Numbered from the stretch's first letter, positions 15,626 through 52,369 are shown. The stretch: DNA of 64,000 bases from Candidatus Methanoperedenaceae archaeon (GCA_963753595.1 CAVWCX010000001.1:96001-160000); one strand, 5' to 3'. Numbers and translations are program-made. Notes: generated by a model from the sequence alone, not told the origin.

Positions 15626-16300
15626 ATGTTGAAAAAATTATTTACAAAAAATAACAGGGAATATCGGTTAATAAAGACAACCTTGATAATATCTGTCTTA
15701 ATAATTTTTGTTTCTTCTCTTGCAATATCCGTAAATGCATACGAAAGACCCGAATATACGGATGGATTGACTGATAAATGGCATCCAGGCGCCTATTGTA
15801 TACCCTGTCATTATACCCTGTTGAGTACGGATAAAGCCCAATCGATTTCAAATGGGTGCAAATGCCATGATTACGTACCGAAAAATGCAGAAAATAAGTA
15901 TAAAGTTGATATGACAAAGATTTTCAATATCCATGAGGATATCGTATGCATAAGGTGCCATGTTGGTGTGAAGGAAGGGACCAACGTGACCGCGGCGGAT
16001 TTCCACAGGATAATGAACAAAGAGACATGCATGACATGCCATACTTATGAGAATGGCACGATCCAAAAGCCACTAAAAACGAAATGCTCCGACTGTCATT
16101 CAGGTGATCCGCATGTGGTTCACGGCAAAAGGCTTGAAAAAATGTGCGAGACATGTCATGGGGATTTTGCGAAAAACTATGTTGGGGGTAAAACAATTAG
16201 TCCCATATCGACTAAACCTGAAGTTGCTGTTAAGGAATACACAACAATAGGGCAGATTATCAGTAACTTAGTTGAGTCTTTAATGCAAATATTCAGGTGA
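15626..16300 (+). CDS. exported hexaheme cytochrome c (5 CxxCH + 1 contracted CxCH)
   Basis: CIPCH, CKCH, CIRCH, CMTCH, CSDCH, CETCH; signal peptide; amphipathic C-terminal helix; paralog of 33963. Confidence 0.88.
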   Translation: MLKKLFTKNNREYRLIKTTLIISVLIIFVSSLAISVNAYERPEYTDGLTDKWHPGAYCIPCHYTLLSTDKAQSISNGCKCHDYVPKNAENKYKVDMTKIFNIHEDIVCIRCHVGVKEGTNVTAADFHRIMNKETCMTCHTYENGTIQKPLKTKCSDCHSGDPHVVHGKRLEKMCETCHGDFAKNYVGGKTISPISTKPEVAVKEYTTIGQIISNLVESLMQIFR

Positions 16301-16302
16301 AT

Positions 16303-16728
16303 ATGAAATTAATTCTGGTGCTGTTTTTCATTTCAGTAATGATTTTCTCCGGCTGCATAGGAAATCCCACAAAACAAGTACCTGTAGTACATGTTAATAT
16401 CACTTTTGTGGAAAAAGAGGGTTTTTCGCAAGTGCAAAATTATAAAATAACCCAGGAGACGGTCAACTATCTTGGAAGGCCTAAAAAAACCCAGGCTGAA
16501 TCTTTCCCTGCCATAACTGCAAGAACGATGATAATGAAAGAAAAAAATAGTAGTATAGGGCCATGGGAAACTCTGTCCTATAATGGAAATGGGATTTATT
16601 CATTTAATATCGGATTTAAGGACGACAATTATCCTGCAGCCGGAGATAAAGTACATATTTCTATAATGGTCGTTGATAAAAAAGGGGATAGAATAGGATA
16701 TTTCGTGCAGGATATGGTTTGGGAATGA
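16303..16728 (+). CDS. small beta-rich lipoprotein (paralog of 34536)
   Basis: Lipobox FSGC; shares SFP.I.AR, G.Y...I.F.D...P..GD and a terminal WE with 34536. Confidence 0.75.
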   Translation: MKLILVLFFISVMIFSGCIGNPTKQVPVVHVNITFVEKEGFSQVQNYKITQETVNYLGRPKKTQAESFPAITARTMIMKEKNSSIGPWETLSYNGNGIYSFNIGFKDDNYPAAGDKVHISIMVVDKKGDRIGYFVQDMVWE

Positions 16729-16767
16729 AATTGATACACTAAATATTGAGTATCCTGATATAATATT

Positions 16768-16788
16768 GAAATCATAAAGTATTTATGG
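16768..16788 (+). promoter_or_regulatory. putative BRE/TATA promoter
   Basis: GAAATCATAAAGTATTTATGG; near-identical to GAATCGTAAAGTATATATGC at 27746. Confidence 0.55.
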
Positions 16789-17536: not shown

Positions 17537-17541
17537 GTAAG

Positions 17542-17580: not shown

Positions 17581-18306
17581 ATGTATATCCCTTTAAATGA
17601 TATACTGTTTCTTTTAATTCTTTTGGCATTTTTGATAATGGTATATAGAAGAATTATTTACAGCATTAGTTTTTCTGAGCCAATTATCCAAACCTTTAAA
17701 ACTTTTGACAGGAAGCATAGGATCAATGCTTATATTAAACAAATAAACCAAAGACCAGAAGAATCCCAGAAAGTCGTATTAAAAGAGCTATTTATTTTTA
17801 TATTTGCACTAATGATAATGTTCCTTTTTGCTTCAAAAGCAATTTTGTTTACAGCTGTGATATCAGGGAGCATGTCTCCCACCTTCGATAAGGATGATCT
17901 TGTCCTTATGCAGAATATAGACCGTACATACAAACCCGGGGACATAATAATGTTCGAGCGGCCAGATACTTCATTTCCTGTTGTACATAGAATAAAGCAG
18001 ATTACAGACAAAGGTATAAATACAGCAGGTGATGCCACGGATCAGGTGGACTGGTGGGAACTCGAAAAAGAAAAAATTCTCGGGAAAGCTATTATGATAC
18101 AGGGGAAACCAGTAGTTATAAAAGGATATGGTAAGTTCTTCATAATTGATGAACGTAACCAGGACTTTGGTCCAATGGGGCAGGATTACGGAAAATACTT
18201 TTTATTTTTCCAGATTATAAAGATTTATGGATATGTTATTGCAGTGTTTTCTTTATTTCTTTATATTTTTATGACATTAAGGCAAAAGCCATGGCAAAGT
18301 AGATAA
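17581..18306 (+). CDS. signal peptidase I, S26 SipW/Sec11 (Ser-His) type
   Basis: SGSMSP (catalytic Ser), GDIIMF, VVHRI (catalytic His), TAGD; flanking TM helices. Confidence 0.88.
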   Translation: MYIPLNDILFLLILLAFLIMVYRRIIYSISFSEPIIQTFKTFDRKHRINAYIKQINQRPEESQKVVLKELFIFIFALMIMFLFASKAILFTAVISGSMSPTFDKDDLVLMQNIDRTYKPGDIIMFERPDTSFPVVHRIKQITDKGINTAGDATDQVDWWELEKEKILGKAIMIQGKPVVIKGYGKFFIIDERNQDFGPMGQDYGKYFLFFQIIKIYGYVIAVFSLFLYIFMTLRQKPWQSR

Positions 18307-18329: not shown

Positions 18330-19895
18330 ATGGAAAAAAGGCATATCTTGCTTATCGTGGCGTTACTTTCTGCCATAGTATTCGTAATGCCAAATATTTA
18401 TTCTTTATTTGCAGGCCAGCACTGGTTTTATGATACTGGAGTGTCCTATTGCCTGAAATGCCATTCTGATATCAAACAGGAGCTTGATTCCCAATTCCAT
18501 CATACTTTTACATGCGAAAACTGCCACTCTATCAATACGAATTCAAATGCAACGCATGGAAATGTGGTTTCACCCAGATGCCTTGATTGCCATTCTAATC
18601 CCGGGCGTCTAGTGACGGATTCAAATGGAAATACATTCCTCACTCCTCTTGCATATGTTTTTGGAGAAAATGTAACAAATGCGGAATCACATAAGCCTTT
18701 GATTACAGGGGCCAATTCATCACCTCTTATGAAAGGTGAAAATGAAGCATGTTTTTCCTGCCATACCAGGAAATCGATCAGCATCAATATACGTTATGCA
18801 GATACATACAGTTTCAATTCCCGCAGGGCTGATAACGGCACATGGCAAATGTGGGATTATTCAAAAAATGCCGAAAATTCAGTAAATTTGATTATCCAGG
18901 CCAACGAATCTTCAGGAAAGCATTTGTTTTTATCATTAAATCAATTAAAATGTGAAAAATGCCATCCGAATACTGGAGACGAGCTCACAAGTTCCTCCCA
19001 TCATACATACTTTTCATGCAACTCCTGCCATCAGCTGTATTCGACATACCATGTATCAAGTATCCCCCCATGTCTTGAATGTCACGGCACAGAGCCAAAG
19101 ATGGTCACTGATATGCAAAAGAATACATATGTTGCATCTGCAGCTAAAGTCTATTCAGAAAATACGATAGGGGCAGATGCACATCTCCCGTTTGTCCTGG
19201 GCGCAAATTCAAGCAATTTATCTGCAGGCAGTAACATTGCCTGCTTTTCATGCCATTCCGGTTTAAATAATAAGATAATTTTTTCAAGACCGGAATATAT
19301 TGAATGGGATGTTGAAAATTCAGGCGGCACATGGACGATACAAAATCTTGCATTGGGAGAAACAAAGGAAGTGAAGGTTACAAAATATTCAGATGGAAAA
19401 TCCCATAATATCTCTATGGATACAGGTTGCATATCCTGCCACGATGACATAAGGCAGGCAGTCTCTAATGGCGGACATTCTAACGAGCAGTGGGGAATGA
19501 AACATAATTATTCCGATTATAGCGATATGAACTTTTATTGCAGGTCATGCCATGATCCATTTACTAAAGATAACTTTAATAATTCTCCATATCCAGCCTA
19601 TCCTTTTAACTCCATCAATCATGGTTCTATTAAAATACTATGTATGGATTGTCATGGCAGATCAGGAAGTTTGTCAGTAAGCTTCAATGGGATCATGAAG
19701 ATTCCATCTTACAACAGTACTTCCATGGGCAATATTGAGAGTTCGATCAGCCTCCAGCCGGATTTTATTCAATCGTACCTGTGCATAGCATGTAAGAACA
19801 CGGGGAATCCTGTTCCGAATACTTCATTACACTTTAAATTATATACTGAACCTGAGGTAAAGGTTTATGTCAATGGGACGCAACGATATCCGTAA
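18330..19895 (+). CDS. dodecaheme cytochrome c: three fused tetraheme modules, last site CxxCK
   Basis: PNIYSLFAGQHWFY; 11 CxxCH plus CIACK; internal module starts SGKHLF and GKSHNI. Confidence 0.9.
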   Translation: MEKRHILLIVALLSAIVFVMPNIYSLFAGQHWFYDTGVSYCLKCHSDIKQELDSQFHHTFTCENCHSINTNSNATHGNVVSPRCLDCHSNPGRLVTDSNGNTFLTPLAYVFGENVTNAESHKPLITGANSSPLMKGENEACFSCHTRKSISINIRYADTYSFNSRRADNGTWQMWDYSKNAENSVNLIIQANESSGKHLFLSLNQLKCEKCHPNTGDELTSSSHHTYFSCNSCHQLYSTYHVSSIPPCLECHGTEPKMVTDMQKNTYVASAAKVYSENTIGADAHLPFVLGANSSNLSAGSNIACFSCHSGLNNKIIFSRPEYIEWDVENSGGTWTIQNLALGETKEVKVTKYSDGKSHNISMDTGCISCHDDIRQAVSNGGHSNEQWGMKHNYSDYSDMNFYCRSCHDPFTKDNFNNSPYPAYPFNSINHGSIKILCMDCHGRSGSLSVSFNGIMKIPSYNSTSMGNIESSISLQPDFIQSYLCIACKNTGNPVPNTSLHFKLYTEPEVKVYVNGTQRYP

Positions 19896-20877
19896 AAAAA
19901 TCAAGAACCCTTTACTTGATGTTAATGAAGATGTATCTGTCAGGCCTTTTGAGCATTATTCGTTCTTTGATAAAATAGGCGTTGCCAGTGCTTTGATCAT
20001 GTCGATGGCGATATTATTAATGTCAATCATTTCTTTTTATATTGATTTTGTAAAATCAAATTATCTTTATACATTGATAGATTTAATTATTTTTGTATTC
20101 TCTCTGGGAGCTGTATACTTTGTCTTAAATGCTTTCAAGAAAAGAGTGATCACTGACCTATTGATAGATACGGCATTCCAGGAAGGAGTTTATTCAAGAC
20201 TTGCGCCTTTGGTTGAAAATATAGCCAGGTCGCATGTAGATACAAATATTATTCTGGACAGGATGTCCAATATTGATTTGAAGGTCGAAAATATTTTAAA
20301 AGAAGGGTATGCAAGGGATATAAAATCAGGTGACGTTTTACAGGAGCCCATTGCTGTTGCAACCTCAATTAAATTCGCGATCAAATCGATTTTTTTAATA
20401 GTTGTGACAATGGCTGTTTTTATGTTCCTTTTAAATTTTAATCTCGCTGGTATTACTCCCTATGCTGTTCTTTTGGTATTTATCGCATGGTGGGGATTTA
20501 TAACAAACGAATATAATTTATGGAAGGAGTCTTCTGCCTGGGCAATGGTTTTTCTCCCAATACTTGTGATACCGGTAGCCGTCATGCTTTTAGCAAATCT
20601 TTTGAATTATAACGTATTAATGGCGATACTATATGTATCTGTTGGATTATATACATTTGTTTATTATATCTGGGCTGTATATGCATCAACAGGAAGCCTG
20701 CCATTAATCGCGACAAGAAAACAAGAACAGGTAGAAAGTGAATTTTTCGCTTTACAACAAAAAGGAATGCTGAAAAAACTTTTTGATTTATCAATTTCAA
20801 GAGTTGAACAAAAATTGCAGGAAGACAAGAAAAAGCAGGAATCAGATTATATCTGGAAAAAATCTTTGAAGGACTGA
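19867..20877 (+). CDS. integral membrane protein (2 TM + helical loop + ~4 TM), paralog of 50812
   Basis: TLIDLII.VFS and WW..[IF]T.EY.L motifs shared with 50812. Confidence 0.8.
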   Translation: MSMGRNDIRKKIKNPLLDVNEDVSVRPFEHYSFFDKIGVASALIMSMAILLMSIISFYIDFVKSNYLYTLIDLIIFVFSLGAVYFVLNAFKKRVITDLLIDTAFQEGVYSRLAPLVENIARSHVDTNIILDRMSNIDLKVENILKEGYARDIKSGDVLQEPIAVATSIKFAIKSIFLIVVTMAVFMFLLNFNLAGITPYAVLLVFIAWWGFITNEYNLWKESSAWAMVFLPILVIPVAVMLLANLLNYNVLMAILYVSVGLYTFVYYIWAVYASTGSLPLIATRKQEQVESEFFALQQKGMLKKLFDLSISRVEQKLQEDKKKQESDYIWKKSLKD

Positions 20878-21429
20878 CAAACTTTCATTCTTGAATTTAA
20901 TTACATCACGAGATTTTTGGATTTTACGATATTTTGTTTCAGTTCTTTTCATTGTTACGTTTCTATATTTCTTAACTTCTTTTGTTGCCGGTATTATATC
21001 ATATTTAAATTCCGTGATGGTCTCGTTATAACTTATTTCAATTGTTTTCATTTCTCCGGAAGAAATATAATTTCCTGTCGAAGATATTTTGGTGACCAAT
21101 GGAATAGAAATATCTTTTTTGGTAGTAATACGAAAATCCACATTAAAATTTCCATTTATTGTGTCATTATTCTTGATTGTAACCCATACATGGGATGGGG
21201 AAGGAGATATAGAGTTTGAATATTGGGCATCAATTACAATGTAATCGATTGGAACGTCCTCTATGTATGATTCGTTAACTGTGTAATTATAAAAATTAAA
21301 ATCTATATACGGTTCCTCAAATGTATAATATTCTGTATCAGTATAAGGTACGGATGTATTATAAGGTACATTTATGCAGATGAATAGGAAAAATGCAAGG
21401 AAAGCGTATTTATGGTTTATTCTTTTCAT
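20842..21429 (-). CDS. membrane-anchored hypothetical protein with long beta-hairpin-like stalk (paralog of 51721)
   Basis: N-terminal TM; Y/T/E-rich N-arm and K/R-rich C-arm; ESYI..VP and TKEV.K motifs shared with 51721. Confidence 0.7.
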   Translation of the reverse strand: MKRINHKYAFLAFFLFICINVPYNTSVPYTDTEYYTFEEPYIDFNFYNYTVNESYIEDVPIDYIVIDAQYSNSISPSPSHVWVTIKNNDTINGNFNVDFRITTKKDISIPLVTKISSTGNYISSGEMKTIEISYNETITEFKYDIIPATKEVKKYRNVTMKRTETKYRKIQKSRDVIKFKNESLSVLQRFFPDII

Positions 21430-23082: not shown

Positions 23083-24372
23083 TTGTTGTGCGTGGAATTT
23101 AAACTGACTATCCTAATTATGGTATTTATTCTCTTTGCCGTTCCTTCCCTGGCTGTTGATAATGGATATGCCAGGATAGTTTATAATGTAAGGGGATTGC
23201 AGGATTATGATCTGCACTGGAACGACAGGTTCCCTCCCGGGAGCACTTTAAGAATTTATGCAGAGGCAAACGGCGTGAATCATAAGCGCCAGGTGGCAGT
23301 TGATTACATTTTTATTATTAAGGATCCAAATAATAATGTTATAGATACGGCATTATATAGCAATAGATATGAAGATTACAGGGAAAATGATTTCATGACC
23401 TATTCAAGGAATGTGCCGCAAGAGTGGGATGATGGGGTTTATACGGCTGATATACATATTTTTGACCTGTTGAATGAAACACTAATGGATACATATTATC
23501 GTGAACTTATAATGTCATATTTGAATGAGAGTGACAGGCCTGATCTTCCGGTAATGAATCGAAGCAATGCATCAGTTCTGCCGGAACAGCACATGATAAT
23601 TAAGAAAACCTTTTTTATTGACAGGTATGCAAATAAATATCCCGTTGACAGATTCAGAATAGAAAAAATCATGCTTGATAGAACAAGTGTTGCGCCAAAT
23701 ATGCCAGTTGCGGTTAGCGCCAATGTGATCAATACTTTTTATGATAAAGGTTCAACATCTATTGATTTGTTATTAGATAATAAAGTAATTAACAAAACTA
23801 CGCTGGAAATTGAAAGTTATAGTTCCAGCCAGGCTATTTTCACAGTTTCCACCGAAATTATCGGGAACCATACTGTAGAAATTATACCGACTGGAATGAA
23901 TACTATTGGAATAAATCTGTCCGGTGTCTTCATGGTGAGCGCCGAAAAAGAGATAGAAAAACCTACGGAATTTGTTTACCAGGATATACAGATAGATAAA
24001 TTAAGTGTCGAGCCAAACGGGACCGTGATTATCGCTGTGACAGTAAAAAATACAGGAAAGGAAGGAATCCAGTCTGTGGAGTTGTATATTAATGATGTCC
24101 TGGAAGAAGAAAGACAGGTAGATCTAAACTTTTCGGAAATTAAAGATATTTTATTCAATGTGACCAAAAAAGATCTGGGCGCATACAGGGTTACAGTTGG
24201 CAAATCAACTCTTAGCAAGGTTTTTTTTGTGGAATCAAGTACACCTGTTCCTTTTGTAACAGCCGGACCCAAAATAGAAAAAAAGCCGCAGCTTAAGGTC
24301 GTGATCGGCCTATCAGTTATTGTTATATTGATATATCTTTTAAGAATATATTTAAAAAATAAATGGAAGTGA
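23083..24372 (+). CDS. membrane-anchored Ig/CARDB-like domain protein (paralog of 36045)
   Basis: Signal peptide; two CARDB-like domains (V..TVKNTG); C-terminal TM; HW...[FY]PP and YP.DR motifs shared with 36045. Start codon uncertain. Confidence 0.75.
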   Translation: MLCVEFKLTILIMVFILFAVPSLAVDNGYARIVYNVRGLQDYDLHWNDRFPPGSTLRIYAEANGVNHKRQVAVDYIFIIKDPNNNVIDTALYSNRYEDYRENDFMTYSRNVPQEWDDGVYTADIHIFDLLNETLMDTYYRELIMSYLNESDRPDLPVMNRSNASVLPEQHMIIKKTFFIDRYANKYPVDRFRIEKIMLDRTSVAPNMPVAVSANVINTFYDKGSTSIDLLLDNKVINKTTLEIESYSSSQAIFTVSTEIIGNHTVEIIPTGMNTIGINLSGVFMVSAEKEIEKPTEFVYQDIQIDKLSVEPNGTVIIAVTVKNTGKEGIQSVELYINDVLEEERQVDLNFSEIKDILFNVTKKDLGAYRVTVGKSTLSKVFFVESSTPVPFVTAGPKIEKKPQLKVVIGLSVIVILIYLLRIYLKNKWK

Positions 24373-24376
24373 TAAA

Positions 24377-25114
24377 ATGGTAGCAAGAATCATTGCCATA
24401 GCATCGGGAAAAGGCGGTGTCGGTAAAACGACTATCGCTTTGAACTTGGGATTTGCTATGGCATCATTAAAAAAGAATGTCCTGGTCATAGACACTGACG
24501 TATCTCTTCCAAATCTGGATCTATATACAGGACTTGAAAAACCATTAATTACTCTTCTTGAGGTATTGAATGGCTCAGCAAATATCCAGAGCGCGATATA
24601 CTCAATCCAGATGGGGCTGAACATCCTGCCATGCGGTTCTTCGATTGAAGCTTTACGCGGTGCAGATATTGACAAATTAGGAGATATTATCTCAGAATTA
24701 AAAAACAGCGAATTTGATTTTATAATTCTGGATGTTCCTGCAGGTCTTTCCAAGTTCAGTTTATTGCCCATGACATATTCCGATGAGGTTATACTTATTG
24801 TCAATCCGGACCCGGCTTCCATATCAGATGCCCGGAAGGTAAGAACAGTATCCGGGCTTACTGATATGAAGATCACAGGCATAATTGTGAATAAATTTAA
24901 AAAGAACAATTATGAGGACATTGGAATAAAATTAGGACTGCCAGTTATCGGGGTGGTACCTGTGGATGATGCTGTCGTTAAATCCAGGGATTCAAGAAAA
25001 CCTGTAATATTACTGAAACCAAAATCTGCTCCCGCAAAAGCATTAATGCAAATAGCAAGAAAAGTATGCGGGATCCCTGAGAAAAAAAGTATTTTAGCGA
25101 GATTATTAGGATAA
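24377..25114 (+). CDS. minD: MinD/ParA-family ATPase (archaeal MinD-like)
   Basis: IAIASGKGGVGKTT deviant Walker A; DVPAG; VNK; C-terminal amphipathic SILARLLG membrane-targeting helix. Confidence 0.85.
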   Translation: MVARIIAIASGKGGVGKTTIALNLGFAMASLKKNVLVIDTDVSLPNLDLYTGLEKPLITLLEVLNGSANIQSAIYSIQMGLNILPCGSSIEALRGADIDKLGDIISELKNSEFDFIILDVPAGLSKFSLLPMTYSDEVILIVNPDPASISDARKVRTVSGLTDMKITGIIVNKFKKNNYEDIGIKLGLPVIGVVPVDDAVVKSRDSRKPVILLKPKSAPAKALMQIARKVCGIPEKKSILARLLG

Positions 25115-25116: not shown

Positions 25117-25732
25117 ATGGACAAGACCAAGGAAAAGGAAGTTTTGGATTTTCTTATGGATGATGGCACATGGGAAAAGACTCCCGGGAAAAAAATCGTT
25201 CAAAAACAACAGGAAATTGGAAAACCAAAAGTCAGCCAACCTGGTAAAATCCCCGAAAATCGAAAATCTGAAAATATGGGGCATATAAACGAAGTCGCAA
25301 AAGAATTTACAAATGAAGAGGTTGATAAAAAAATATAAAAAGACAGGCGATGTTTCTGAAAATGAATTTGGTGAAGTGGATTATGCTATCCTGAAATCAG
25401 TGACTTTTGGTTTTAAAACCATAAAAGAAATTGCAGAAGTGCTGCAAATAAGGACAATGGTCATTGAGAAACATATTTATAAACTTATTCAGGATGGATT
25501 TATAAAATATTTTCAATATTGTGTAATTACTTCAAGGGGAAAACAAGTAATTGAAGACTTTGTGAAAGATAATCCCGAAGATGTCTGGATGCCAATAGAT
25601 GAATTTATATTATCAGTTATCGAACAGAAAAAAGAACGAAATTTAAAGTTCCAGAAGATGGTCGATTTAATTCTTCTTATCTCCATGATAATTTTGATTG
25701 TGCTGATTATTTATTTTGGGCTCATCGCATGA
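25117..25732 (+). CDS. winged-helix protein with C-terminal TM; two overlapping ORFs (25117-25338, 25313-25732) that may be one frameshifted gene
   Basis: TIKEIAEVLQI...IYKLIQDGFI...ITSRG wHTH signature. Removing one A from the A7 run at 25327-25333 fuses the ORFs into 204 aa. Confidence 0.6.
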
Positions 25733-25783
25733 TTTTCAAAAAAGACAAACAGACTGCAGATAAGCGTATTATTGACACTTTCG

Positions 25784-25847: not shown

Positions 25848-25894
25848 GGATTATAACATTAACAATACCTGTAATATTTCTAAGTCAAAGACCA

Positions 25895-38212: not shown

Positions 38213-39093
38213 ATAAAAACATATATATAATAATTATTTTTGTAGTCATTGTGACCACTTTGATTCAAACTTTTTCTTTTGTCAGCAGCGATCATCAGAT
38301 CAATCCTCCAGTACAGGACAAATGCATACAATGCCATGGAGATGTAAATACGCAATTATCCAAATCAACCCAACATTCTTCGTTCTCCTGTATAAGCTGC
38401 CATCCCAAATCAGTAATAAACCATACTAATAAGCAACCGGAATGTGAATACTGTCATGATACGCTTCAAATGAGCGATACATTTGAAGCACATTCTGATT
38501 TTGTATCTTTAAGGTCAGAAGGGTGTATAGCCTGTCATACGAACTATAATGTCATTATAAATTATTCCAGACCTGAATTCATATCATATACAATTACAAA
38601 TAATTCAGGAAATTGGGTCATCTCCAATTTCGCAACCAGTGGCATGTTGAACTTATCTTACAACGCTCTTAAGCAAGGGGGGAACCATAATATAAAAAAT
38701 GTATCCTGCAAAGACTGCCATAAAGATATTTTCGATGCAGTTTCTATGAGAGGTCATGCAGTAATTTCCGGAAAAGAAGAAAACCAGGCGCCTTATCATA
38801 ATACCAGCAACTCGACAAGCAACGAAGAATGGTGTCTTACCTGCCATAGCCCGAAAGATAATAAATTCCCAAATCAGCAGCATTCAGCACGCAGAACGAC
38901 TTGCGAAGAATGCCATGAAGCATATAATTTATCCGCCCATCCAGGAAATATCTATACCAATATCAAAACTGTTCCTCGTTTATACCGAAGCCTGGTGTGC
39001 ATATCATGTAAATCTGTAGGGTGGCAGGTACCTAACACTACATTGAAGTTCAAAGTACATCAAGAGCCATATTTCGATGTAACGATGTCGTGA
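38209..39093 (+). CDS. octaheme cytochrome c: two fused tetraheme modules, last site CxxCK
   Basis: 7 CxxCH plus CISCK; IQTFSFVSSDH leader; internal module start GGNHNI. Confidence 0.9.
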   Translation: MNKNIYIIIIFVVIVTTLIQTFSFVSSDHQINPPVQDKCIQCHGDVNTQLSKSTQHSSFSCISCHPKSVINHTNKQPECEYCHDTLQMSDTFEAHSDFVSLRSEGCIACHTNYNVIINYSRPEFISYTITNNSGNWVISNFATSGMLNLSYNALKQGGNHNIKNVSCKDCHKDIFDAVSMRGHAVISGKEENQAPYHNTSNSTSNEEWCLTCHSPKDNKFPNQQHSARRTTCEECHEAYNLSAHPGNIYTNIKTVPRLYRSLVCISCKSVGWQVPNTTLKFKVHQEPYFDVTMS

Positions 39094-42100: not shown

Positions 42101-45100
42101 AATTTCTCATGGACTCCCGGCTTTGGAGATGCAGGAACTTATGCCTGGTTCTTTAACTCAAGTGATGGTTACGGTGGAGTTGCAGTCGAGAACATAACAA
42201 TATCTGTTAACGATACGCCATTATCGATTATCTCCTTCTCCCCGTTGACAGACCCGGCAACAGAGCAGGGTTTGACACAAAACTTCAGCATGAATATGAA
42301 CAGAACAGCCAACGTGACATGGTACATGGATGGTACCCCGGTTCAGACAGATATTAGTGTCATTTTGGCGAACTACACCAATTCCACGGCTGGCATAGGT
42401 ACATACAATATTACTGCAACAGCCAGCGATATTTATGATACTGCTACAACATCCTGGAACTGGACCGTAACTGCCCAATCCATGTATAATGTCAGCGGTT
42501 ATGTGTTTGACAACTATGGCTCAGGATTGGAAGGAGTTCTTGTGCAGAATGGAAGCAACCAGAATACAACGATAGCCTCCGGGTACTACTTGATAAGTAG
42601 TCTGGTAAACAGCACCTACAACTTCAGCTACTCTAAGGACGGATTCAACACTGGCTATCTGGAAGTTACGATCAATGGTTCGTATAATACAAGTGCCAAC
42701 AATACAATATATGACACGATACCGCCCTCTTCGATATCCAGCACAATTATAACAACCGGCAATTTCTACCTGAATAACACATGGATTAATCCAGCAGAAC
42801 CTGATTTCAATTATTCCTGGTTCAGGTACAGCAACAATACCACACTGACCAATGTCAGTAAGAATGCCAGTTATCTGAATCTCACCTGGCCGCCGCACTA
42901 CTCCCAGAACCTCAGCGTCCAGACAGTTGATGTTTATGGTAACACTAACCAAACGAAAGTCTGGTTCAATGCCACTATTCCCAATAATGCACCTGTTCAG
43001 TCACAGATCGGAAATAAGACCTTCGATGAAGGGCAATGGTTGAACTTCACAGTTAACGCCACCGACCTGGATAATGATGTATTGGTTTATGGCACCAACG
43101 CAACGAACGGTACGTTCAATACCACGACAGGTAACTTCTCATGGCAGACAACCTTTGCAGATTCAGGAATCTATGTGTGGAACTTCAACTCAAGCGACGA
43201 TTACGGTGGAGTTGCCGTCGAGACTATAACAATAACTGTGAACAATACCCCGCTTTCCTTCACTTCATTCTCCCCACTGACCGATCCGACAACGGAACTG
43301 GGCTTGTCACAAAACTTCAACGTAACACTGAACAGAACAGCCAACGTGACATGGTACATGGATGGTATCCCTATCCAGACCAATACAAGTATCACCTTTG
43401 CCAACTACACCAATTCCACAGCTGGCATAGGAACATACAATGTTACTGCGACGGCCAGCGATATTTATGATACTGCTACAACATCCTGGAACTGGACCGT
43501 AACCGCCCAATCCATGTATAATGTCGATGGCTATGTGTTTGACAACTATGGCTCAGGATTGGGAGGAGTTCTGGTACAGAACGGGAGCAATCAGAATACA
43601 ACGATAGCCTCAGGGTACTACCTGATAAGTAGTCTGGCAAACGGTACTTACAACTTCAGCTACTCCAGGACCGGATTCAACACAGACTACCTGGAAGTTA
43701 CAATAAACGGTGCAGATAATACAAGCTCGAATAAGACATTATATGATACCACTCTACCAGCCTCTGTATCTGATTCTATTATGTTGACCGGCAACTTCTA
43801 TGTAAACAATACATGGATTAATCCACAGGATGCAGACTTCAATCATACATGGTTCAGGTACAGCAACGATAACACACTTACGAATGTCAGTAATACATCC
43901 AGCGACCTCAACATCACCTGGCCGCCGCACTACACCCAGAACCTCAGTGCCCAGACTATTGATGTTTATGGTAACACAAACCAGACGAAAGTCTGGTTCA
44001 ACACCACTATACCCAATAACGCTCCAGTCCAGGCAGCGATTGGTAACAAAACACTAACATCAGGCCAGCTTTTAACCTTCATTGTTTCAGCTACCGATGC
44101 GGATAATGACACAATTACCTTCGGCATGAATGCAACGAATGGCAGCCTGAACACCACAACCGGAAATTATTTCTGGCAGACCAATAGCACTGACGTTGGA
44201 ACTTATGTCTGGAACTTCAATAGCAGCGATAATTATGGCGGAGTTGCGAATGAAACCATCACCATTACCGTAACTGAAATCCCGACATATCTACCTCCAT
44301 CTCCTGTTAACCTCATCGCGACCCAGGGCAACTTCTGGATAAACCATAGCTGGGAAGCAGGATTGGGTAATGACACGAACAGCTACAACGTAAGCGTGAA
44401 CGATATCTGGACGAACGGAACGACAGCTACTTTCAACAACACCACAGTTCCAGCCCATGGGTGGAGTAACATTTCAGTCTATGCCTACAATTCCTCAGGC
44501 ACAGGAACACTGAACACGACCCCTGTATCCAATAACACCCAGCTTTCCAATAATTTAGTGACTATCGGGAATATCTCTTCCAGTTATACAGTCACATCCG
44601 GTGACACGATTTCGATTTATCCGACCTCAAGCGACCTGGACGGTGACGTTCCAACATTTGCCCGGAACTTCAGTAACGGAACATTCTCCCCCAATAATGG
44701 AACTCTGGTCTGGACGACAGCAAGCATCGATATCGGCCTCCATTCCCTGCAAATCAACGTCACCGACGGTTATGGTTCCGTATCCTCCTCGAATTTCACA
44801 ATAACCGTGACCGCCCCAATACCCTTTAATTACACTCCTCCATCCCCTGTCAACCTCATCGTGACCCAGGGCAACTTCTGGATAAACCACAGCTGGGAAG
44901 CAGGATTGGGCAATGACACGAACAGCTACAACGTAAGCGTTAACGACCTCTGGACAAACGGAAGTACGAACACTTACAATAACAGTACAGTTCCAGCCCA
45001 TGGCTGGAGCAACATTTCAGTCTATGCCTACAATTCCTCAGGCACAGGAACCCTGAACACTACCCCGATCACCAATAACACCCAGCTTTCCAATAATTTA

Positions 45101-48100
45101 GTGACTATCGGCAATATCTCTTCCAGTTATACAGTCACAGCTGGAGACATAATCTCGATATATCCGACCTCAAGCGATCTGGACAATGACGTTCCAACAT
45201 TTGCCCGGAACTTCAGTAATGGTACATTCTACCCTGATAATGGAACCCTGATCTGGACGACAGCGAGCATCGATACAGGCCTCCATTCCCTTCAAATCAA
45301 CGTCACCGACGGTTATGGTTCCGTATCCTCCTCGAATTTCACAATAACCGTGACCACCCCAATACCCTTTAATTACACTCCTCCATCCCCTGTTAACCTC
45401 ATCGCGACCCAGGGCAACTTCTGGATAAACCACAGCTGGGAAGCAGGATTGGGCAATGACACGAACAGTTACAACGTAAGCGTTAATGACCTCTGGACAA
45501 ACGGAAGTACGAACACTTACAACAACACCACAGTTCCAGCCCATGGGTGGAGCAACATTTCAGTCTATGCCTACAATTCCTCCGGTTCAGGAACACTGAA
45601 CACGACCCCTGTATCCAATAACACCCAGCTTTCCAATAATTTAGTGACTATCGGGAATATCTCTTCCAGCTATACAGTCACAGCCGGTGACACGATCTCG
45701 ATCTATCCGACATCTCTCGACCTGGACGGAGACATTCCAACATTTGCCCGGAACTTCAGTAACGGAACATTCTCCCCCAATAATGGAACTCTGGTCTGGA
45801 CGACAGCAAGCATCGATATCGGCCTCCATTCCCTGCAAATCAACGTCACCGACGGGTTTGGTTCCGAATCCTCAACGAATTTCACAATAACCGTGACCGC
45901 CCCAATACCCTTTAATTACACTCCTCCATCTCCTGTTAACCTCATCTCGACCCAGGGCAACTTCTGGATAAACCATAGCTGGGAAGCAGGATTGGGTAAT
46001 GACACGAACAGCTACAACGTAAGCGTTAACGACCTCTGGACAAACGGAAGTACGAACACTTACAATAACAGTACAGTTCCAGCCCATGGCTGGAGCAACA
46101 TTTCAGTCTATGCCTACAATTCCTCAGGCACAGGAACCCTGAACACTACCCCGATCACCAATAACACCCAGCTTTCCAATAATTTAGTGACTATCGGCAA
46201 TATCTCTTCCAGTTATACAGTCACAGCTGGAGACATAATCTCGATATATCCGACCTCAAGCGACCTGGACGGTGACGTTCCAACATTTGCCCGGAACTTC
46301 AGTAACGGTACATTCTCCCCCAATAATGGAACCCTCTTCTGGACAACTGAAAGCATCGATACAGGCCTCCATTCCCTTCAAATCAACGTCACCGACGGGT
46401 TTGGTTCCGTATCCTCCTCGAATTTCACAATAACCGTGACCACCCCAATACCCTTTAATTACACTCCTCCATCTCCTGTTAGCCTTTCAACCACGCAGGG
46501 CAACTTCTGGATAAACCACAGCTGGGAAGTAGGATTGGGCAATGACACGAACAGCTACAACGTAAGCGTTAATGACCTCTGGACAAACGGAAGTACGAAC
46601 ACTTACAATAACAGTACAGTTCCAGCCCATGGCTGGAGCAACATTTCAGTCTATGCCTACAATTCCTCAGGCACAGGAACCCTGAACACTACCCCTGTAT
46701 CCAATAACACCCAGCTTTCCAATAATTTAGTAACGATCGGCAATATCTCTTCCAGCTATACAGTCACAGCAGGTGACACTATCTCCATCTATCCGACCTC
46801 AAGCGACCTGGACAATGACCTTCCAACCTTTGCCCGGAACTACAGTAATGGTACATTCTACCCCGATAATGGAACCCTTGTCTGGACAACAGAAAGCATC
46901 GATACAGGCCTCCATTCCCTTCAAATCAACGTCACCGACGGGTTTGGTTCCGTATCCTCCTCGAATTTCACAATAACCGTAACCGCCTCATTACCCCTTA
47001 ATTACACGCCTCCATCTCCTGTTAGCCTTTCAACCACGCAGGGCAACTTCTGGATAAACCACAGCTGGGAAGCAGGATTGGGCAATGACACGAACAGCTA
47101 CAACGTAAGCGTTAACGGCAGCTGGACGAATGGAACGACAGCCACTTACAACAACACCACAGTTCCAGCCCATGGCTGGAGTAACATTTCGGTATATTCA
47201 TACAACAGTTCAGGTACAGGAACCCTGAACACGACCCCGATCACCAATAACACCCAGCTTTCCAATAATTTAGTAACGATCGGCAATATCTCTTCCAGTT
47301 ATACAGTCACAGCCGGCGACACGATCTCCATCTATCCGACATCCCTCGACCTGGACAATGACGTTCCAACCTTTGCCCGGAACTTCAGTAATGGTACATT
47401 CTACCCCGATAACGGAACCTTCATCTGGACAACAGACAGCATCGATACAGGCCTCCATTCCCTGCAAATCAACGTCACCGATGGCTATGGTTCCGTATCC
47501 TCCTCGAATTTCACAATAACCGTGACCACCACAATACCCCTGAATTACACTCCTCCATCCCCCGTTAACCTCATCGCGACCCAGGGCAACTTCTGGATAA
47601 ACCACAGCTGGGAAGCAGGATTGGGCAATGACACGAACAGCTACAACGTAAGCGTTAATGACCTCTGGACAAACGGAAGTACGAACACTTACAACAACAG
47701 TACAGTTCCAGCCCATGGCTGGAGCAACATTTCAGTCTATGCCTACAATTCCTCAGGCACAGGAACCCTGAACACGACCCCTGTATCCAATAACACCCAG
47801 CTTTCCAATAATTTAGTGACTATCGGCAATATCTCTTCCAGTTATACAGTCACAGCTGGAGACATAATCTCCATCTATCCGACCTCAAGCGACCTGGACG
47901 GTGACGTTCCAACCTTTGCCCGGAACTTCAGTAATGGTACATTCTACCCTGATAATGGAACCCTGATCTGGACGACAGCGAGCATCGATACAGGCCTCCA
48001 TTCCCTGCAAATCAACGTCACCGATGGCTATGGTTCCGTATCCTCCTCGAATTTCACAATAACCGTATCCGCCGCATTACCCCTGAATTACACGCCTCCA

Positions 48101-50656
48101 TCCCCTGTTAACCTCATCGCGACCCAGGGCAACTTCTGGATAAACCACAGCTGGGAAGCAGGATTGGGCAATGACACGAACAGCTACAACGTAAGCGTTA
48201 ATGACCTCTGGACAAACGGAAGTACGAACACTTACAATAACAGTACAGTTCCAGCCCATGGCTGGAGCAACATTTCAGTCTATGCCTACAATTCCTCAGG
48301 TACAGGAACACTGAACACGACCCCGGTTACCAATAACACCCAGCTTTCCAATAATTTAGTGACTATCGGGAATATCTCTTCCAGTTATACAGTCACAGCT
48401 GGAGACATAATCTCGATATATCCGACCTCAAGCGATCTGGACAATGACGTTCCAACATTTGCCCGGAACTTCAGTAATGGTACATTCTACCCTGATAATG
48501 GAACCCTGATCTGGACGACAGCGAGCATCGATACAGGCCTCCATTCCCTTCAAATCAACGTCATTGACGGATTTGGTTCCGTATCCTCCTCGAATTTCAC
48601 AATAACCGTGACCGCCCCAATACCCTTTAATTACACGCCTCCATCCCCTGTTAACCTCATCGCGACCCAGGGCAACTTCTGGATAAACCACAGCTGGGAA
48701 GCAGGATTGGGCAATGACACGAACAGCTACAACGTAAGCGTTAATGACCTCTGGACAAACGGAAGTACGAACACTTACAATAACAGTACAGTTCCAGCCC
48801 ATGGCTGGAGCAACATTTCAGTCTATGCCTACAATTCCTCAGGCACAGGAACCCTGAACACGACCCCTGTATCCAATAACACCCAGCTTTCCAATAATTT
48901 AGTGACTATCGGGAATATCTCTTCCAGTTATACAGTCACAGCAGGTGACACTATCTCCATCTATCCGACCTCAAGCGACCTGGACAATGACCTTCCAACC
49001 TTTGCCCGGAACTACAGTAATGGTACATTCTACCCTGATAATGGAACCCTTGTCTGGACGACAGCAAGCATCGATACAGGCCTCCATTCCCTGCAAATCA
49101 ACGTCATTGACGGATTTGGTTCCGTATCCTCCTCGAATTTCACAATAACCGTGACCGCCCCAATACCCCTTAATTACACGCCTCCATCCCCTGTTAACCT
49201 CATCGCGACCCAGGGCAACTTCTGGATAAACCACAGCTGGGAAGCAGGATTGGGTAATGACACGAACAGCTACAACGTAAGCGTTAACGACCTCTGGACG
49301 AACGGAAGTACAAACACTTACAATAACAGTACAGTTCCAGCCCATGGCTGGAGTAACATTTCGGTATATTCATACAACAGTTCAGGTACAGGAACCCTGA
49401 ACACGACCCCGATCACCAATAACACCCAGCTTTCCAATAATTTAGTAACGATCGGCAATATCTCTTCCAGTTATACAGTCACAGCCGGCGACACGATCTC
49501 CATCTATCCGACATCCCTCGACCTGGACAATGACGTTCCAACCTTTGCCCGGAACTTCAGTAATGGTACATTCTACCCTGATAATGGAACCCTTGTCTGG
49601 ACGACAGCAAGCATCGATATCGGCCTCCATTCCCTGCAAATCAACGTCACCGACGGCTATGGTTCAGTATCCTCATCAAATTTCACAATAACAGTCAAAT
49701 CATTGCCATCTTATAATGCAAGCGGCTATGTGTTCGATAATTTCGGCGCAGGATTGGAAGGTGTCCTGGTCCAGAATGGCAGCAACCAGAGTATAACATC
49801 AGCATCAGGATATTATTCCATAACAAATCTGCCAAATGGTACTTACAACTTCAGCTATTCAAAAGCTGGATTTAATACGGACTATTTAGATATCACAATC
49901 AGCGGTGCTAATAATACCACGGCGAATAAGACACTCTATGATACAACACCGCCAGCCAGTGTTTTCAATATTGCCAACACTTCAAATCCAATGTATATCA
50001 ACTGGACATGGTCAGATCCGTCAGACCCTGATCTTGATCATGTAGAAGTGTATATTGACGGCGCGTTCATGATCAATGTGTCCAGAGAAGTGCAATTCTA
50101 CAATGCAAGTTACTTTGCTCCTAATTCAACCCACATAATATCAACACGAACTTCTGATAATTTCAGTAATGTGAATACTACCTGGGTCAATAATACAGCA
50201 ACTACTCACTCCGAATATACCTATGTATCCAGTTTCATGAATGAAACGGGCATAGTATCAGGCTTTGACGATGCCCGGAATGCAAGTGATGGACTGGTTG
50301 CAATCTTTGCAGAGGTTAATGTGGGTGGATTGTACCAGCTCAATGTTACCACAAATACCACTGGAATACCTGACGCCAGCATCCACACATTGGAGCTGAG
50401 ATACAATGTTTCCGGAGACAACTTCACAATGCAGATATGGAACGGGTCATCATGGAACAACAGGTCAATTTTGAACGATACTTCAATGTCTTACATCAAC
50501 ATTACTATACTCCCCGAAGAATTGATTTCCGACGGAACACTGCCGGGTAATGCAGGAACTATTAATAAGTACTATTCACTTGTTCGTTATCTGGATTTGA
50601 ATGCAAGCGCGCAGAGCATGCTGTATCTTGACTATCAGAGGATTTACAATGTATAA
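39147..50656 (+). CDS. giant cytochrome-adhesin fusion (~3,836 aa if repaired): 7 CxxCH + CxxCK head followed by ~35-40 Ig/FN3/cadherin-like domains; frameshift in G7 run at 39613-39619
   Basis: ORFs 39147-39632 and 39725-50656 join with one extra G and then align colinearly with 38209 (HNIKNVSCKDCHKDIFDAVS lies in the downstream frame). Confidence 0.85.
40030..44280 (+). repeat. four intragenic ~1.03-1.08-kb repeat units (Ig-like, carboxypeptidase-regulatory-like, FN3-like, cadherin-like)
   Basis: SGYVFDN.G..L.GVLV.NGS recurs in each unit; units 3 and 4 are similar at DNA level with a period of 1032 nt (42299 vs 43331). Boundaries approximate. Confidence 0.8.
44294..49695 (+). repeat. ten tandem near-identical 543-nt (181-aa) intragenic repeats
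   Basis: Units start at 44294, 44837, 45380, 45923, 46466, 47009, 47552, 48095, 48638 and 49181 (PPSPV.L..TQGNFWINHSWE). Confidence 0.95.
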
Positions 50657-50811
50657 AATGAGGAATTCAGTTATCATTGAGCAATTTATTTATAATATGA
50701 GAAGCAAATATTTATATACTAATGATTCAGCCTTAAAAGGATCTCTTGTGCAAAATGGCAGTAAACCGAACACCTCAATAGCATTTAAAAAACCATATGA
50801 GGTGATAAAAA

Positions 50812-51693
50812 ATGAAAGATAAAATCGCAGTATTCAGTGCTATACTTCTGGGCGTAGTGGTGGGATTATTTGCAACGTTATCACTGATAATAGATGTTTT
50901 CTTTCTCGATAATATCTTAGGAACATTAATAGATCTTATCATAATGGTATTCTCTTACATGACGGCATGGATAGGGGTAAGGCACGTCCTGATGCAGAAA
51001 CTCGCGAATGATAAAATGGATAAGGAATGGGATTATAAAATTCAGCCACTCATGAATATGCTCACTGATACGGTTGGCAGGATCAATGCTATGGAAACCC
51101 AGGTAATGCAGACCAATCGCAGGGTGGACACCACTCTTGATTATGTAACTAAGATGCAGGATATGGATGCTTCAAAAGTATATATTTTCCCGGGCGCGTC
51201 TTTTAAATTCATAGCAAAAGTTCTTGTAGTGACAGTCTTTACATTCTCTTCATTAGTTTATGTGGCCGAATATCCGCTGGGTATTGTTCATTATTTCATT
51301 TTGATCATTTACCTGATATGGTGGGCATTATTCACTTCAGAATATAAACTTTTCAATAACAAGATGGCTTGGTTATGGGCGCTTGCTCCAATAATGACCG
51401 TTCCAGTCGGGGGAATTATCCTTGACGCAGCATGGGGACCAAATATCATGATGGGTATTTTGTTCGGTTTATTATTCTTCTATGTCTATTTTTATTATTC
51501 CTGGGCTGCCTATGTTACTGTAGGGTTCAAATTGTTAGACTTGAAAGGATTAAGGGATTATCTTATCAAGAATATGGACACGTATGTTGAAAAGGAGAAA
51601 ACTGAGCGCAAGATTAACAGGAAATGGATCGATGTGGCAATTCTTGCCAGTATAGTAATTGCGGGAGCAATTGCGGTATGGGTTTTTATTTAA
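50812..51693 (+). CDS. integral membrane protein, paralog of 19867
   Basis: TLIDLIIMVFS; WWALFTSEYKLF; about 7 TM segments. Confidence 0.8.
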   Translation: MKDKIAVFSAILLGVVVGLFATLSLIIDVFFLDNILGTLIDLIIMVFSYMTAWIGVRHVLMQKLANDKMDKEWDYKIQPLMNMLTDTVGRINAMETQVMQTNRRVDTTLDYVTKMQDMDASKVYIFPGASFKFIAKVLVVTVFTFSSLVYVAEYPLGIVHYFILIIYLIWWALFTSEYKLFNNKMAWLWALAPIMTVPVGGIILDAAWGPNIMMGILFGLLFFYVYFYYSWAAYVTVGFKLLDLKGLRDYLIKNMDTYVEKEKTERKINRKWIDVAILASIVIAGAIAVWVFI

Positions 51694-51720
51694 ACACAAA
51701 AATTGATACGAACATATAAA

Positions 51721-52369
51721 ATGAACCTGAAAAAAATTATTGATGGCCGGGTGATATTTTATATAGCTATAATAGTTATTTTAATTGCATTGAATATCCC
51801 TGTTACGACTTCGGAAACTCATACAGAAAAAGAATTTTACACGGAACAAGAACCGTTCAATCTGACTGAAACATATTATGAGAAGGAATCGTATATAGAT
51901 AATGTACCTTTGAAAATTAATACGAGCCTTGACTGGCATATTACTGACCATCGATATAAAGATGAGTTTGACTTAATTGCAACATTAAAAAACATTGATA
52001 ATTCAAACGGAGAATTTTGGGTTACTTTTCATGTGGAAAGCACAAATGGGTCTTTCGATTACACAACAGACAGGGTATTTTTGAAACCTGCAGAAAGTTT
52101 TCAAATAGAACATGGATTTACAGGTCTTTTCTCATATGTTACCTATAAGGTAAAACAGCCAACCAAAGAAGTAGAAAAAATTCCGGGACATACCTAAAGA
52201 AAGAACGATTACGAGCTATCGCGAGATTGAAAAATCCCGCGAAGTGGTCAGGGTGAAGAAAAATACATTGACCTTCCTTCAACGAATATTGGAGTATCCA
52301 CCGAACTATGAGCCTGAGCCGCCTGTGCAAATACCAACTGAAAATGTAGAAGATAACTGGGAAGAGTAG
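51721..52369 (+). CDS. membrane-anchored hypothetical protein, paralog of 20842 (frameshift in A6 run 52175-52180)
   Basis: Deleting one A gives EVEKFRDIPKERTITSYREIEKSREV...FLQR, matching EVKKYRNVTMKRTETKYRKIQKSRDV...VLQR of the paralog; stop TAG at 52367-52369. Confidence 0.75.

Follow-up and report, generated by a model that had tools for sequence, protein, structure and literature searches.

Two diverged copies of a gene set associated with AvECN-type nanowire cytochromes in a Candidatus Methanoperedenaceae archaeon

Introduction

Which genes of an archaeon cut, assemble and hold an extracellular cytochrome nanowire (ECN), and are they to be found among the uncharacterised genes that stand beside the genes for nanowire subunits? 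The question is raised by a stretch of 64,000 nucleotides from a Candidatus Methanoperedenaceae archaeon (GCA_963753595.1, positions 96001-160000 of contig 1, CAVWCX010000001.1; genome of 2.89 Mb in 37 contigs), hereafter called the window, in which positions are counted from the first letter. The nearest protein relatives of its open reading frames (ORFs) carry the label Candidatus Methanoperedens. An original prediction, made from the sequence alone, held that positions 15626 to 52369 encode a dedicated assembly system for a cytochrome nanowire, in which a cassette of seven genes, present twice, supplies subunits, cap subunits, a SipW-type peptidase and a membrane base. The analysis described here supports this interpretation in part. 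The association of the cassette genes with a nanowire-subunit family is strong, and the functions that we propose for them are putative.

The reference filament is AvECN, reportedly described by Baquero et al. in 2023 as the extracellular cytochrome nanowire of Archaeoglobus veneficus. Recent literature describes the secretion, initiation and termination of cytochrome nanowires, and their attachment to the cell, as unresolved, and the available text of one study points out that bacterial OmcE operons encode no candidate for a stopper or tip (mBio 2026 / bioRxiv 2025.10.22.684050).

Results

The gene set is present in two diverged copies

Translation of the window and listing of its ORFs revealed two runs of plus-strand genes, cassettes 1 and 2, within each of which neighbouring genes either overlap or are separated by no more than about 155 bases. 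An all-against-all BLASTP comparison of 33 window proteins showed that the eight named gene pairs are all true paralogues, with identities of 22-34%. The small cytochromes A1 (15626..16300) and A2 (33963..34535) are 31% identical (E 2.6e-17), the small beta proteins B1 (16297..16728) and B2 (34536..34985) 24.5% (E 6.7e-6), and the subunit homologues C1 (16842..17489) and C2 (34972..35946) 33% over their first 73 residues (E 2.4e-11). The corresponding values are 34% (E 7.8e-26) for the peptidases D1 (17581..18306) and D2 (37526..38212), 31% (E 8.6e-35) for the fused cytochromes E1 (18330..19895) and E2a (38209..39093), 27% (E 1.4e-24) for the membrane proteins F1 (19867..20877) and F2 (50812..51693), and 28% (E 5.4e-8) for G1 (20842..21429) and G2 (51703..52197). 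The eighth pair, H1 (23083..24372) and H2 (36045..37520), had been proposed as paired CARDB-like anchors, which agrees with their 22% identity (E 4.6e-18) and with the CARDB-like domains that Pfam detects in them.

These results confirm the duplicate cassette. The claim that seven families occur twice in nearly the same order holds for pairing and order, but not for orientation, since G1 lies on the minus strand, convergent with F1, and G2 lies on the plus strand. The pairing is not a product of chance, because the same families recur in the same neighbourhoods of other genomes (see below), and the duplication must be old, because four further genomes of Methanoperedens also keep cassette 2, whether or not it includes the giant gene fusion described below. 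TATA-like words upstream of the genes were few and inconsistent.

Seven window proteins are assigned to the AvECN family

C1 matched chain A of PDB entry 8E5G with an E value of 1.3e-27, in two stretches that cover residues 7-196. The paralogue P1 (27883..29181), which together with P2 (32271..33572) is encoded between the cassettes, matched the same chain at E 1e-21, and a family profile built from 14 sequences did so at E 2e-60 over positions 4-219. Entry 8E5G is given as AvECN of A. veneficus in the available text of a published report (PMC12954529). The predicted kinship of the tetrahaem module with filament-forming archaeal cytochromes is thereby borne out for the Archaeoglobus protein. 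It fails for the second relative that had been named, PcECN of Pyrobaculum calidifontis: the profile gave no match to 8E5F at E <= 1, so that the family comprises the Archaeoglobus type only and PcECN stands outside it.

The 14 aligned sequences share four invariant CxxCH sites (C50/C53/H54, C76/C79/H80, C108/C111/H112 and C152/C155/H156) and four further invariant histidines (H35, H71, H101 and H132), a total of eight His for four haems. Directly after an N-terminal hydrophobic stretch, all of them carry L-P-x-T-x-x-L-F-x-G-Q-H-x-x-Y. AvECN has in common with the window family the four CxxCH sites, the four additional histidines and the N-terminal L-F-x-G-Q-H. There are also differences from AvECN. 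P1, P2 and C2 contain an insertion of about 130 or more residues between haems 2 and 3, P1 and P2 add a fifth haem, and the E-type proteins carry modules joined to an end domain.

C1 and C2 each have four CxxCH sites, as expected of the single tetrahaem modules for which they had been taken, but as a pair they are uneven. C1 is a homologue of the AvECN-type subunit, whereas C2 is of the P1/P2 type, its matches to these two proteins (E 5e-37 and 8e-40) being stronger than its match to C1. P1 and P2 are indeed pentahaem paralogues, 65% identical and with five CxxCH sites each. All 11 matches of the ECN profile in the genome fall inside the window, and by this measure seven window proteins (C1, C2, P1, P2, E1, E2a and the product of the giant gene E2b) are assigned to the AvECN family as its only members in the genome. 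Contigs of one RNA library (run X19), from a relative with 90-95% identity, cover P1, the end of P2 and A2. They hint at expression, with the reservation that contig depth cannot rank genes and that the library may contain DNA.

A response regulator and a PAS histidine kinase are encoded on the minus strand between P1 and P2 (29429..31790). The regulator, of receiver-HTH type, is kept between the two P paralogues in another genome (locus L102, 92% identity) and is a candidate regulator of the P genes.

The accessory genes follow the subunit family across archaea

To be part of one system, the non-haem families should be tied to the cytochrome family in other genomes, and they are. Among 301 genomes of the class to which the window belongs, Methanosarcinia, F is present in 53, ECN in 52 and B in 50. 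F is found in 52 of the 52 ECN genomes, all 50 B genomes lie within those 52, and the sole genome with F only is 83% complete. Among 96 Archaeoglobi genomes (the class of genome G301, named by locus titles), F and ECN occur in 35 each and together in 33, that is, in 33 of the 37 carriers. ECN, F, B and the D-type peptidase are all absent from four genomes of the window's own genus (G149, G229, G287 and G293), which are 95-99% complete. These genomes nevertheless keep multihaem proteins, including two with frames of 2,186 and 3,461 residues. They mark a natural loss, or a natural gain, of the entire set inside a single genus. F is also missing from 130 of 134 genomes of one family (f2) and from 105 of 105 of another (f7), and gave no match in 301 genomes of the phylum of G305, a sample that may not include Pyrobaculum. 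Viral contigs contained no relative of F or ECN, in a collection that may not include Borgs.

We then compared gene neighbourhoods. A scan of species-representative genomes with the ECN profile gave 77 loci, and profiles built from the window pairs were iterated on the ORFs of these loci. For A, iteration swelled the profile to 207 cytochrome ORFs and was dropped in favour of a two-sequence profile at E 1e-6. Of the 77 ECN-centred loci, 20 contained B, 18 D, 15 F, 14 H and three G. The co-occurrence of B, D, F and H with ECN extends over Methanoperedenaceae, other Methanosarcinales, the anaerobic methanotrophic (ANME) archaea of group ANME-1, Syntrophoarchaeum, Methanocellales and Archaeoglobi, and it is the outcome on which the original prediction had been made to depend. 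Methanoperedens orthologues of cassette 1 have the order AglB - X - A - B - ECN (one or two) - D - ECN/end-module - F - (G) - H - MinD-like - small winged helix-turn-helix (wHTH), where X is a surface protein described below. In ANME-1 the order is ECN (two or three) - D - small three-haem ECN - F - four-haem cytochrome - H - A - B, in a Methanocellales metagenome-assembled genome B - ECN - D - ECN - F, and in GoM-Arc1 ECN array - D - F - H - MinD-like. A shared pattern, ECN - D - ECN variant - F, recurs in all four groups. In four closed Archaeoglobi genomes, ECN arrays, B and giant cytochromes accompany the series A - H - small ORF - D - F.

AvECN itself is encoded in genome G333, where an ORF of 262 residues matches 8e5g_A over its full length (E 1.7e-183). 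This genome has the accessory genes, in dispersed positions. B stands alone at 1.628 Mb, 1.55 Mb from AvECN, and F - D - wHTH - H - MinD-like lies at 1.645 Mb, 17 kb beyond B. The AvECN genome thus differs from the window, in which the accessory genes are clustered and duplicated.

D is a cassette-specific signal peptidase

The assignment of D to the S26/SipW-type peptidases is well founded. D1 and D2 score 58.8 and 88.5 bits against TIGR02228 (cut-off 51.85), and all 25 aligned members of the D family keep S97 (within S-x-S-M-x-P-T), H136 (within H-R) and the pair D151/D157 (within G-D-x...D). We take S97 and H136 to be the catalytic Ser and His (rather than Ser and Lys), acting with a conserved Asp. 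D1 is a Sec11/SipW-type signal peptidase I with three transmembrane (TM) segments; both D1 and D2 have as extras an N-terminal TM segment, a C-terminal domain and a C-terminal TM segment. Two of the three S26 peptidases of the genome lie in the window and the third on contig 37. The D profile separates them clearly, with 323 bits for D1, 238 for D2 and 26 for the contig-37 enzyme. In each cassette D is encoded between a plain subunit gene and an E-type gene, and it is nearly always so placed elsewhere.

The subunit family has a specific motif behind the signal anchor, P-x-T-x-A/S followed by L/F-F-x-G-x-H-x-x-Y/F/W. In the first 90 residues of the ORFs of the fetched loci, the motif was present in 180 of 220 ECN or cap ORFs, and many of the remaining 40 are truncated ORFs or carry near-variants of it. 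None of 47 other multihaem ORFs and none of 28 A-family ORFs had it. Type I signal peptidases follow a small-residue rule at their cleavage sites, and the predicted cut on that rule is after T-x-A/S, which would leave L-F-x-G-x-H at the mature start. D may cleave the ECN-family precursors specifically; the place of its gene, its absence together with ECN and the motif at the predicted cut lend this indirect support. A class III (prepilin) signal peptide was considered and rejected, as the conserved motif follows the hydrophobic segment in the manner of a type I site. The 27 window ORFs scanned with Pfam included no PilB/FlaI-type ATPase and no PilC/FlaJ platform of a type IV pilus or archaellum.

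F is an orphan membrane protein that probably faces inward

Both genome copies of F lie inside the window, and F has no match in Pfam, DUF5305 included, or in NCBIfam. F1 has six TM segments and F2 seven, the extra one being C-terminal. Homologues from ANME-2, GoM-Arc1 and the type III loci described in the Discussion (L080, L084, L085 and L086) have the six-TM core and two C-terminal hydrophobic segments. An AlphaFold2 (AF2) model of F1 shows six TM helices and two others, a long one that follows TM2 and one at the C-terminus. The model is only moderate (pLDDT 72, pTM 0.39), and for this reason no fold is called. W208, W209, E215, P236, Y262 and Y266 are invariant in 33 F sequences. Counts of Lys and Arg place the N-terminus, a 75-residue loop and the C-terminus inside, which leaves predicted outside loops of just 3, 5 and 2 residues. 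F had been proposed as the membrane base of the filament; with such loops it cannot be an extracellular base.

Some homologues of F are fused at their N-termini to TPR repeats and a zinc ribbon (the set P0258, P0266, P0269, P0279), domains that are presumably cytoplasmic, and one is fused to a PQQ/BamB-like propeller and an Ig domain. The fusion partner was never a peptidase, so that no Rosetta-stone link joins D and F, and a D1-F1 complex prediction with both proteins entered as alignments scored 0.00, which gives no verdict and is evidence neither way. A haem handler of the CcmC/CcmF type was rejected as an identity for F, there being no family match and the WW pair lying in predicted TM4 rather than in an external loop. 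The family is small, with 92 representative clusters in 1.84 billion proteins, and the 120 matches listed in a protein search with the F profile were all close relatives or labelled Methanoperedens, with no wider taxonomy. Foldseek found no match in the PDB at E <= 0.001 for the models of F or B, and the ESM Atlas no usable match for F1 or B1, the best score for B being 0.84, to archaeal clusters.

E-type proteins carry an end domain, and one is fused to adhesin-like repeats

E1 consists of two ECN-like modules and a distinct C-terminal end domain, with 11 CxxCH sites and one CxxCK, whereas E2a has one module and the end domain, with seven CxxCH and one CxxCK. The end domain was found in 16 proteins from Methanoperedens, ANME-1 and Archaeoglobi, and that of E1 had no relevant relative among PDB sequences.

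The frame at 39147-39632 had been counted as a gene of its own. It matches residues 1-158 of E2a with 62% identity, and the 3,643-codon frame at 39725-50656 matches residues 196-293 with 63% identity. Each matches one half of E2a, and the two are therefore halves of one gene, E2b-giant (39147..50656), of about 3,800 codons when joined, in which an E2a-like module is fused to some 3,500 residues of Ig-like/CarboxypepD_reg repeats. The reading frame changes in a stretch of seven consecutive G (39613-39619), at which the two frames adjoin. Eight G would unite them. One extra G after position 39612 is present in contigs of two public runs (X1 and X2; depth 28.9 of 28.9 and 3.6 of 3.6), and a third public run lacks the insertion (0 of 5.33). 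Orthologues in three other genomes are intact single frames of 3,131 (L102), 3,539 (L103) and 1,976 residues. The break is either a homopolymer error of the assembly or the mark of a slippery tract that varies in length within an adhesin-like gene. The giant frame contains near-identical repeats of about 200 residues with Big_9 and CarboxypepD_reg-like domains, its G+C content is 0.44-0.48 as compared with 0.31-0.42 before 40 kb, and no C-terminal anchor was seen among its predicted TM segments.

Other cassette proteins and neighbouring genes

B1 is a small protein tethered by a lipobox-type sequence (FSGC), with an Ig/FN3-like beta-sandwich, and B2 is its TM-anchored paralogue; both end in WE, as had been noted. 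The AF2 model of B1 has a pLDDT of 91.8. Its best VIA match (Z 8.7) is an unrelated domain of 4df9_A and the others (Z 5.5-7) are generic FN3-like folds. B was also considered as an Ig-like periplasmic chaperone of the chaperone-usher kind, and what was observed in this respect is the sandwich fold with these matches. Many members of the family have a lipobox-like S-G-C, and none of the Pfam or NCBIfam families matched B. The A proteins had been called a hexahaem pair. This is correct for A2, with six CxxCH, while A1 has five CxxCH and one CKCH, behind an N-terminal signal or anchor; A1 does not have the N-terminal ECN motif.

H1 has a signal peptide, CARDB/Ig-like domains and a C-terminal membrane anchor, and homologues of H occur in 24 loci, those of Archaeoglobi included. 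X (13992..15605, plus strand) is a surface protein with a signal peptide, DUF11/BatD/CARDB-like domains and a C-terminal membrane anchor. It lies directly upstream of A in cassette-1 orthologues and has homologues in 13 loci, among them the BatD-like gene of the type III loci. Downstream of H1 follow, on the plus strand, a MinD/ParA-like ATPase (24377..25114) and a small winged-helix protein whose C-terminus carries a TM segment (25313..25732). The ATPase has homologues in 13 loci, and the winged-helix gene is conserved after it in eight. The two genes follow H in eight Methanoperedens loci and in GoM-Arc1 (L015), and a MinD-like gene adjoins H in the AvECN genome (L099:13345-14121) and in two other Archaeoglobi loci. 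The MinD-like ATPase and the CARDB/BatD-like protein belong to the conserved neighbourhood, which extends beyond the cassette as first drawn. Between H and D, the AvECN genome (L099) has a small TrmB-like ORF, and another locus (L094) has an 87-residue ORF without a Pfam match. G1 is an N-terminally anchored, beta-rich protein that occurs in close relatives of this archaeon only.

Several further genes flank the cassettes. An AglB oligosaccharyltransferase (11734-13995) lies directly upstream of cassette 1, in the same place as in six loci, and a PMT_2-type glycosyltransferase (25772-27637) lies downstream of it; these neighbours hint that surface proteins or filament subunits are N-glycosylated. 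A gene for a PQQ-like propeller (10202-11683) is a conserved neighbour in seven loci. Between G1 and H1, on the minus strand, 21434-22978 encodes a 514-residue lipoprotein-like PD40/WD40 propeller kept only in the three closest loci. Beyond cassette 2, the segment 52371-62297 encodes a BNR/beta-propeller protein with a C-terminal anchor and then cytochromes of 1,849 residues (36 CxxCH and seven longer sites) and 958 residues (17 and two), followed at 62580-63998 by a further, open-ended cytochrome. In Archaeoglobi, the giant cytochromes that neighbour the D-F genes likewise have homologues of the propeller between them or at their side, and the cassette is therefore part of a larger conserved island for electron export.

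Discussion

On balance, our assessment leans slightly towards reading the region as two old, diverged copies of a set for making and holding AvECN-type filaments in archaea. Precursors would cross the membrane via Sec and acquire their haems outside, where the signal anchor would keep them tethered up to cleavage by D, immediately ahead of L-F-x-G-x-H. In the mature protein, the invariant His of this motif is probably a distal haem ligand. The freed subunits would polymerise, and E-type proteins, with their ECN module or modules and an end domain of three to four haems, might serve as end pieces, either starter or tip, one version of which bears the giant adhesin-like repeat. At the cell surface the filament may be held or guided by B, which is Ig-like and tethered by a lipid, and by H and X, which are CARDB-like and anchored at their C-termini, and the small cytochrome A may pass electrons on. 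F, with its soluble parts in the cytoplasm, might organise the membrane site, possibly together with the neighbouring MinD-like ATPase; such an inward-facing role would fit both the TPR and zinc-ribbon fusions and the conserved MinD-like neighbour. Every step of this scheme beyond gene co-occurrence is inferred, as are polymerisation of the proteins of this locus and their division into major, minor and cap subunits.

Several observations weigh against this proposal. Cutting by D, formation of a filament and the roles of A, B, E, F and H are all deduced from sequence, and the phyletic correlation is one among relatives and is confounded with an electron-exporting lifestyle. No B, D, F or H was seen in the fetched flanks of 52 of the 77 ECN-centred loci, many of which lie on short contigs. 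At least 35 of the 74 F matches lie within 15 kb of an ECN match among those listed, a lower bound, as a further 67 ECN matches are not in that listing. In the genome that encodes AvECN, its gene lies near 75 kb with A and a paralogue, and the accessory genes are unlinked to it. D and F stand beside giant cytochromes, with no ECN near, in other Methanosarcinales. Five Methanoperedenaceae genomes, four of the same genus and one of the same family, have a D-F locus without ECN (type III; L080, L081, L087, L088 and L089) in the order D (280 aa) - AAA_22-like (330 aa) - eight-TM F (about 423 aa) - BatD-like - hexahaem. These loci are flanked by formylmethanofuran-dehydrogenase-like genes and, in four of the five, by trp-like genes (Pfam on L080 only), and the window's genome has none. 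Furthermore, the short outside loops of F offer almost no extracellular surface, the CxxCK site is absent from four of the 16 end-domain proteins, and G, first counted as part of the cassette, is confined to close relatives.

One alternative is that D and F are general maturation factors of multihaem cytochromes, D trimming many signal peptides and F handling haem, and that their proximity to ECN reflects gene clustering. This is how a pair described as 'signal peptidase + 8x TMH' was read in the available text of Chadwick et al. (2022), which reports it from ANME, Syntrophoarchaeum, Argoarchaeum, Geoglobus and Ferroglobus and ties it to CcmF2, the giant ANME MHC-B and haem handling (PMC9012536). 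The pair resembles D and F in adjacency, in lineages and in having no homologues elsewhere, a match by description rather than by accession. It differs in that window F has six or seven TM segments with soluble parts predicted to be cytoplasmic, and in that its tightest partners here are ECN and B. The maturation reading could draw on the D-F genes beside giant cytochromes and a gene of about 660 aa in ANME-2 and GoM-Arc1 loci, on the type III locus with its hexahaem gene, and on the conserved Trp residues of F. Yet the four congeners without the set keep their large cytochromes, up to the 3,461-residue frame, and this co-absence argues against a general role, as does the lack of F in nearly all genomes of families f2 and f7. 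Giant cytochromes beside D and F have ordinary signal peptides and none of the 47 other multihaem ORFs has the ECN motif. The position of WW within TM4, the minute outside loops, the lack of a Pfam haem-handling match and the N-terminal fusions to TPR repeats and a zinc ribbon are likewise at odds with haem handling by F. Since the motif is specific to the family and D nearly always lies between a plain ECN gene and an E-type gene, we favour a role linked to ECN and consider general maturation improbable.

It is also conceivable, if in our judgement rather unlikely, that A, the ECN proteins and E form a fixed hetero-oligomer, a short conduit that stays bound to the cell and crosses pseudo-periplasm and S-layer, with B, H and X as its anchors and D simply as its signal peptidase. 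One locus with many differing ECN paralogues, some with insertions or extra domains, would suit such a conduit, as would the membrane anchors on B, H, X and G and the giant S-layer-type cytochromes directly downstream. In the available text on Ca. Methanoperedens vercellensis, moreover, OmcZ-type filaments are the only ones resolved by cryo-EM (PMC13748539). But C1 is collinear with AvECN, which polymerises, and the same text reports an AvECN homologue, ECN^Mv, in cell-free electrode medium together with a second, thicker type of filament (PMC13748539). Finally, the cassettes might be a chance juxtaposition of expanded families without shared function. The low identities of the B and H pairs speak for this, but the families are found together again and again across several archaeal classes, and several Methanoperedens species have retained both cassettes, which makes chance extremely improbable.

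The nearest kind of system is a bundling filament with a private SipW-type peptidase, as in TasA/SipW, the archaeal bundling pili (ABP) and the Tafi loci of haloarchaea. According to the available text on Tafi, TafD is a dedicated signal peptidase, TafG a helper membrane protein and TafB a regulator (PMC12337348). The likeness to these systems lies in subunit genes beside a private type I peptidase, a membrane helper, a winged-helix protein and anchored proteins, with no type IV motor. The subunits differ, being multihaem cytochromes here and donor-strand jelly-roll pilins there, and we found no accessory protein homologous to the Tafi proteins. The bacterial helpers that have been described, namely the OzpA protease for OmcZ and a 'proposed OmcS nanowire assembly machinery' (PMC13748539, PMC13753845; available text), share with it the notion that the wire is matured by a protease and by other products of genes that adjoin the one for the subunit. 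They are unrelated to the present set, however, a subtilisin-type cut of a C-terminal domain and diderm outer-membrane parts standing against a signal peptidase in a monoderm archaeon.

Two studies bear directly on the subunits. Wissink et al. (2026) describe an ECN cluster in Ca. M. vercellensis, in which ECN^Mv, a four-haem AvECN homologue, was detected outside cells, and an unresolved thicker filament was seen in electrode medium; the available text names the cytochromes and their haem counts, but not the non-haem genes, the duplication or the end-module genes (PMC13748539). MmcX of Ca. Serpentinarchaeum aceticum is a four-haem AvECN homologue of the same clade that is highly expressed in situ and supports electron uptake in Shewanella; that work concerns a single gene, and its available text mentions neither neighbourhood nor assembly genes (PMC11176372). 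No paper that assigns B, E, H or F to ECN assembly was found in a literature search whose coverage did not extend to Baquero et al. 2023. The claim that no ECN assembly machinery was known has to be qualified, as D and F appear to have been published as a maturation pair; beyond the papers cited here, no assembly system was found in the literature searched.

The proposal can be carried further, at the price of becoming doubtful: the E-type proteins would be the end pieces of the wire, an adhesin-bearing cap would be switched by the poly-G tract, and the assembly site would be run by F and the MinD-like ATPase. ECN modules would then dock on the polymer, the domain of three to four haems, often with CxxCK, would cap it, and the adhesin of about 3,500 residues would act as a grappling hook for minerals or partner cells. 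If true, this would be the first case of a cytochrome filament with an assembly site that is both positioned and gated by a peptidase.

Cultivable Archaeoglobi of the Geoglobus/Ferroglobus type have the set, and so does Methanoperedens, of which the available text of one study reports a near-axenic culture grown on an electrode (PMC13748539); these ideas are thus testable. What the set offers is a list of named candidates, comprising a private peptidase, a cut-site motif, end-module subunits, anchored Ig-like proteins, and F with an ATPase. D, F and the other uncharacterised membrane proteins are the best current candidates for the machinery that builds archaeal cytochrome nanowires, and they bear on how anaerobic methane oxidisers transfer electrons to minerals and partners.

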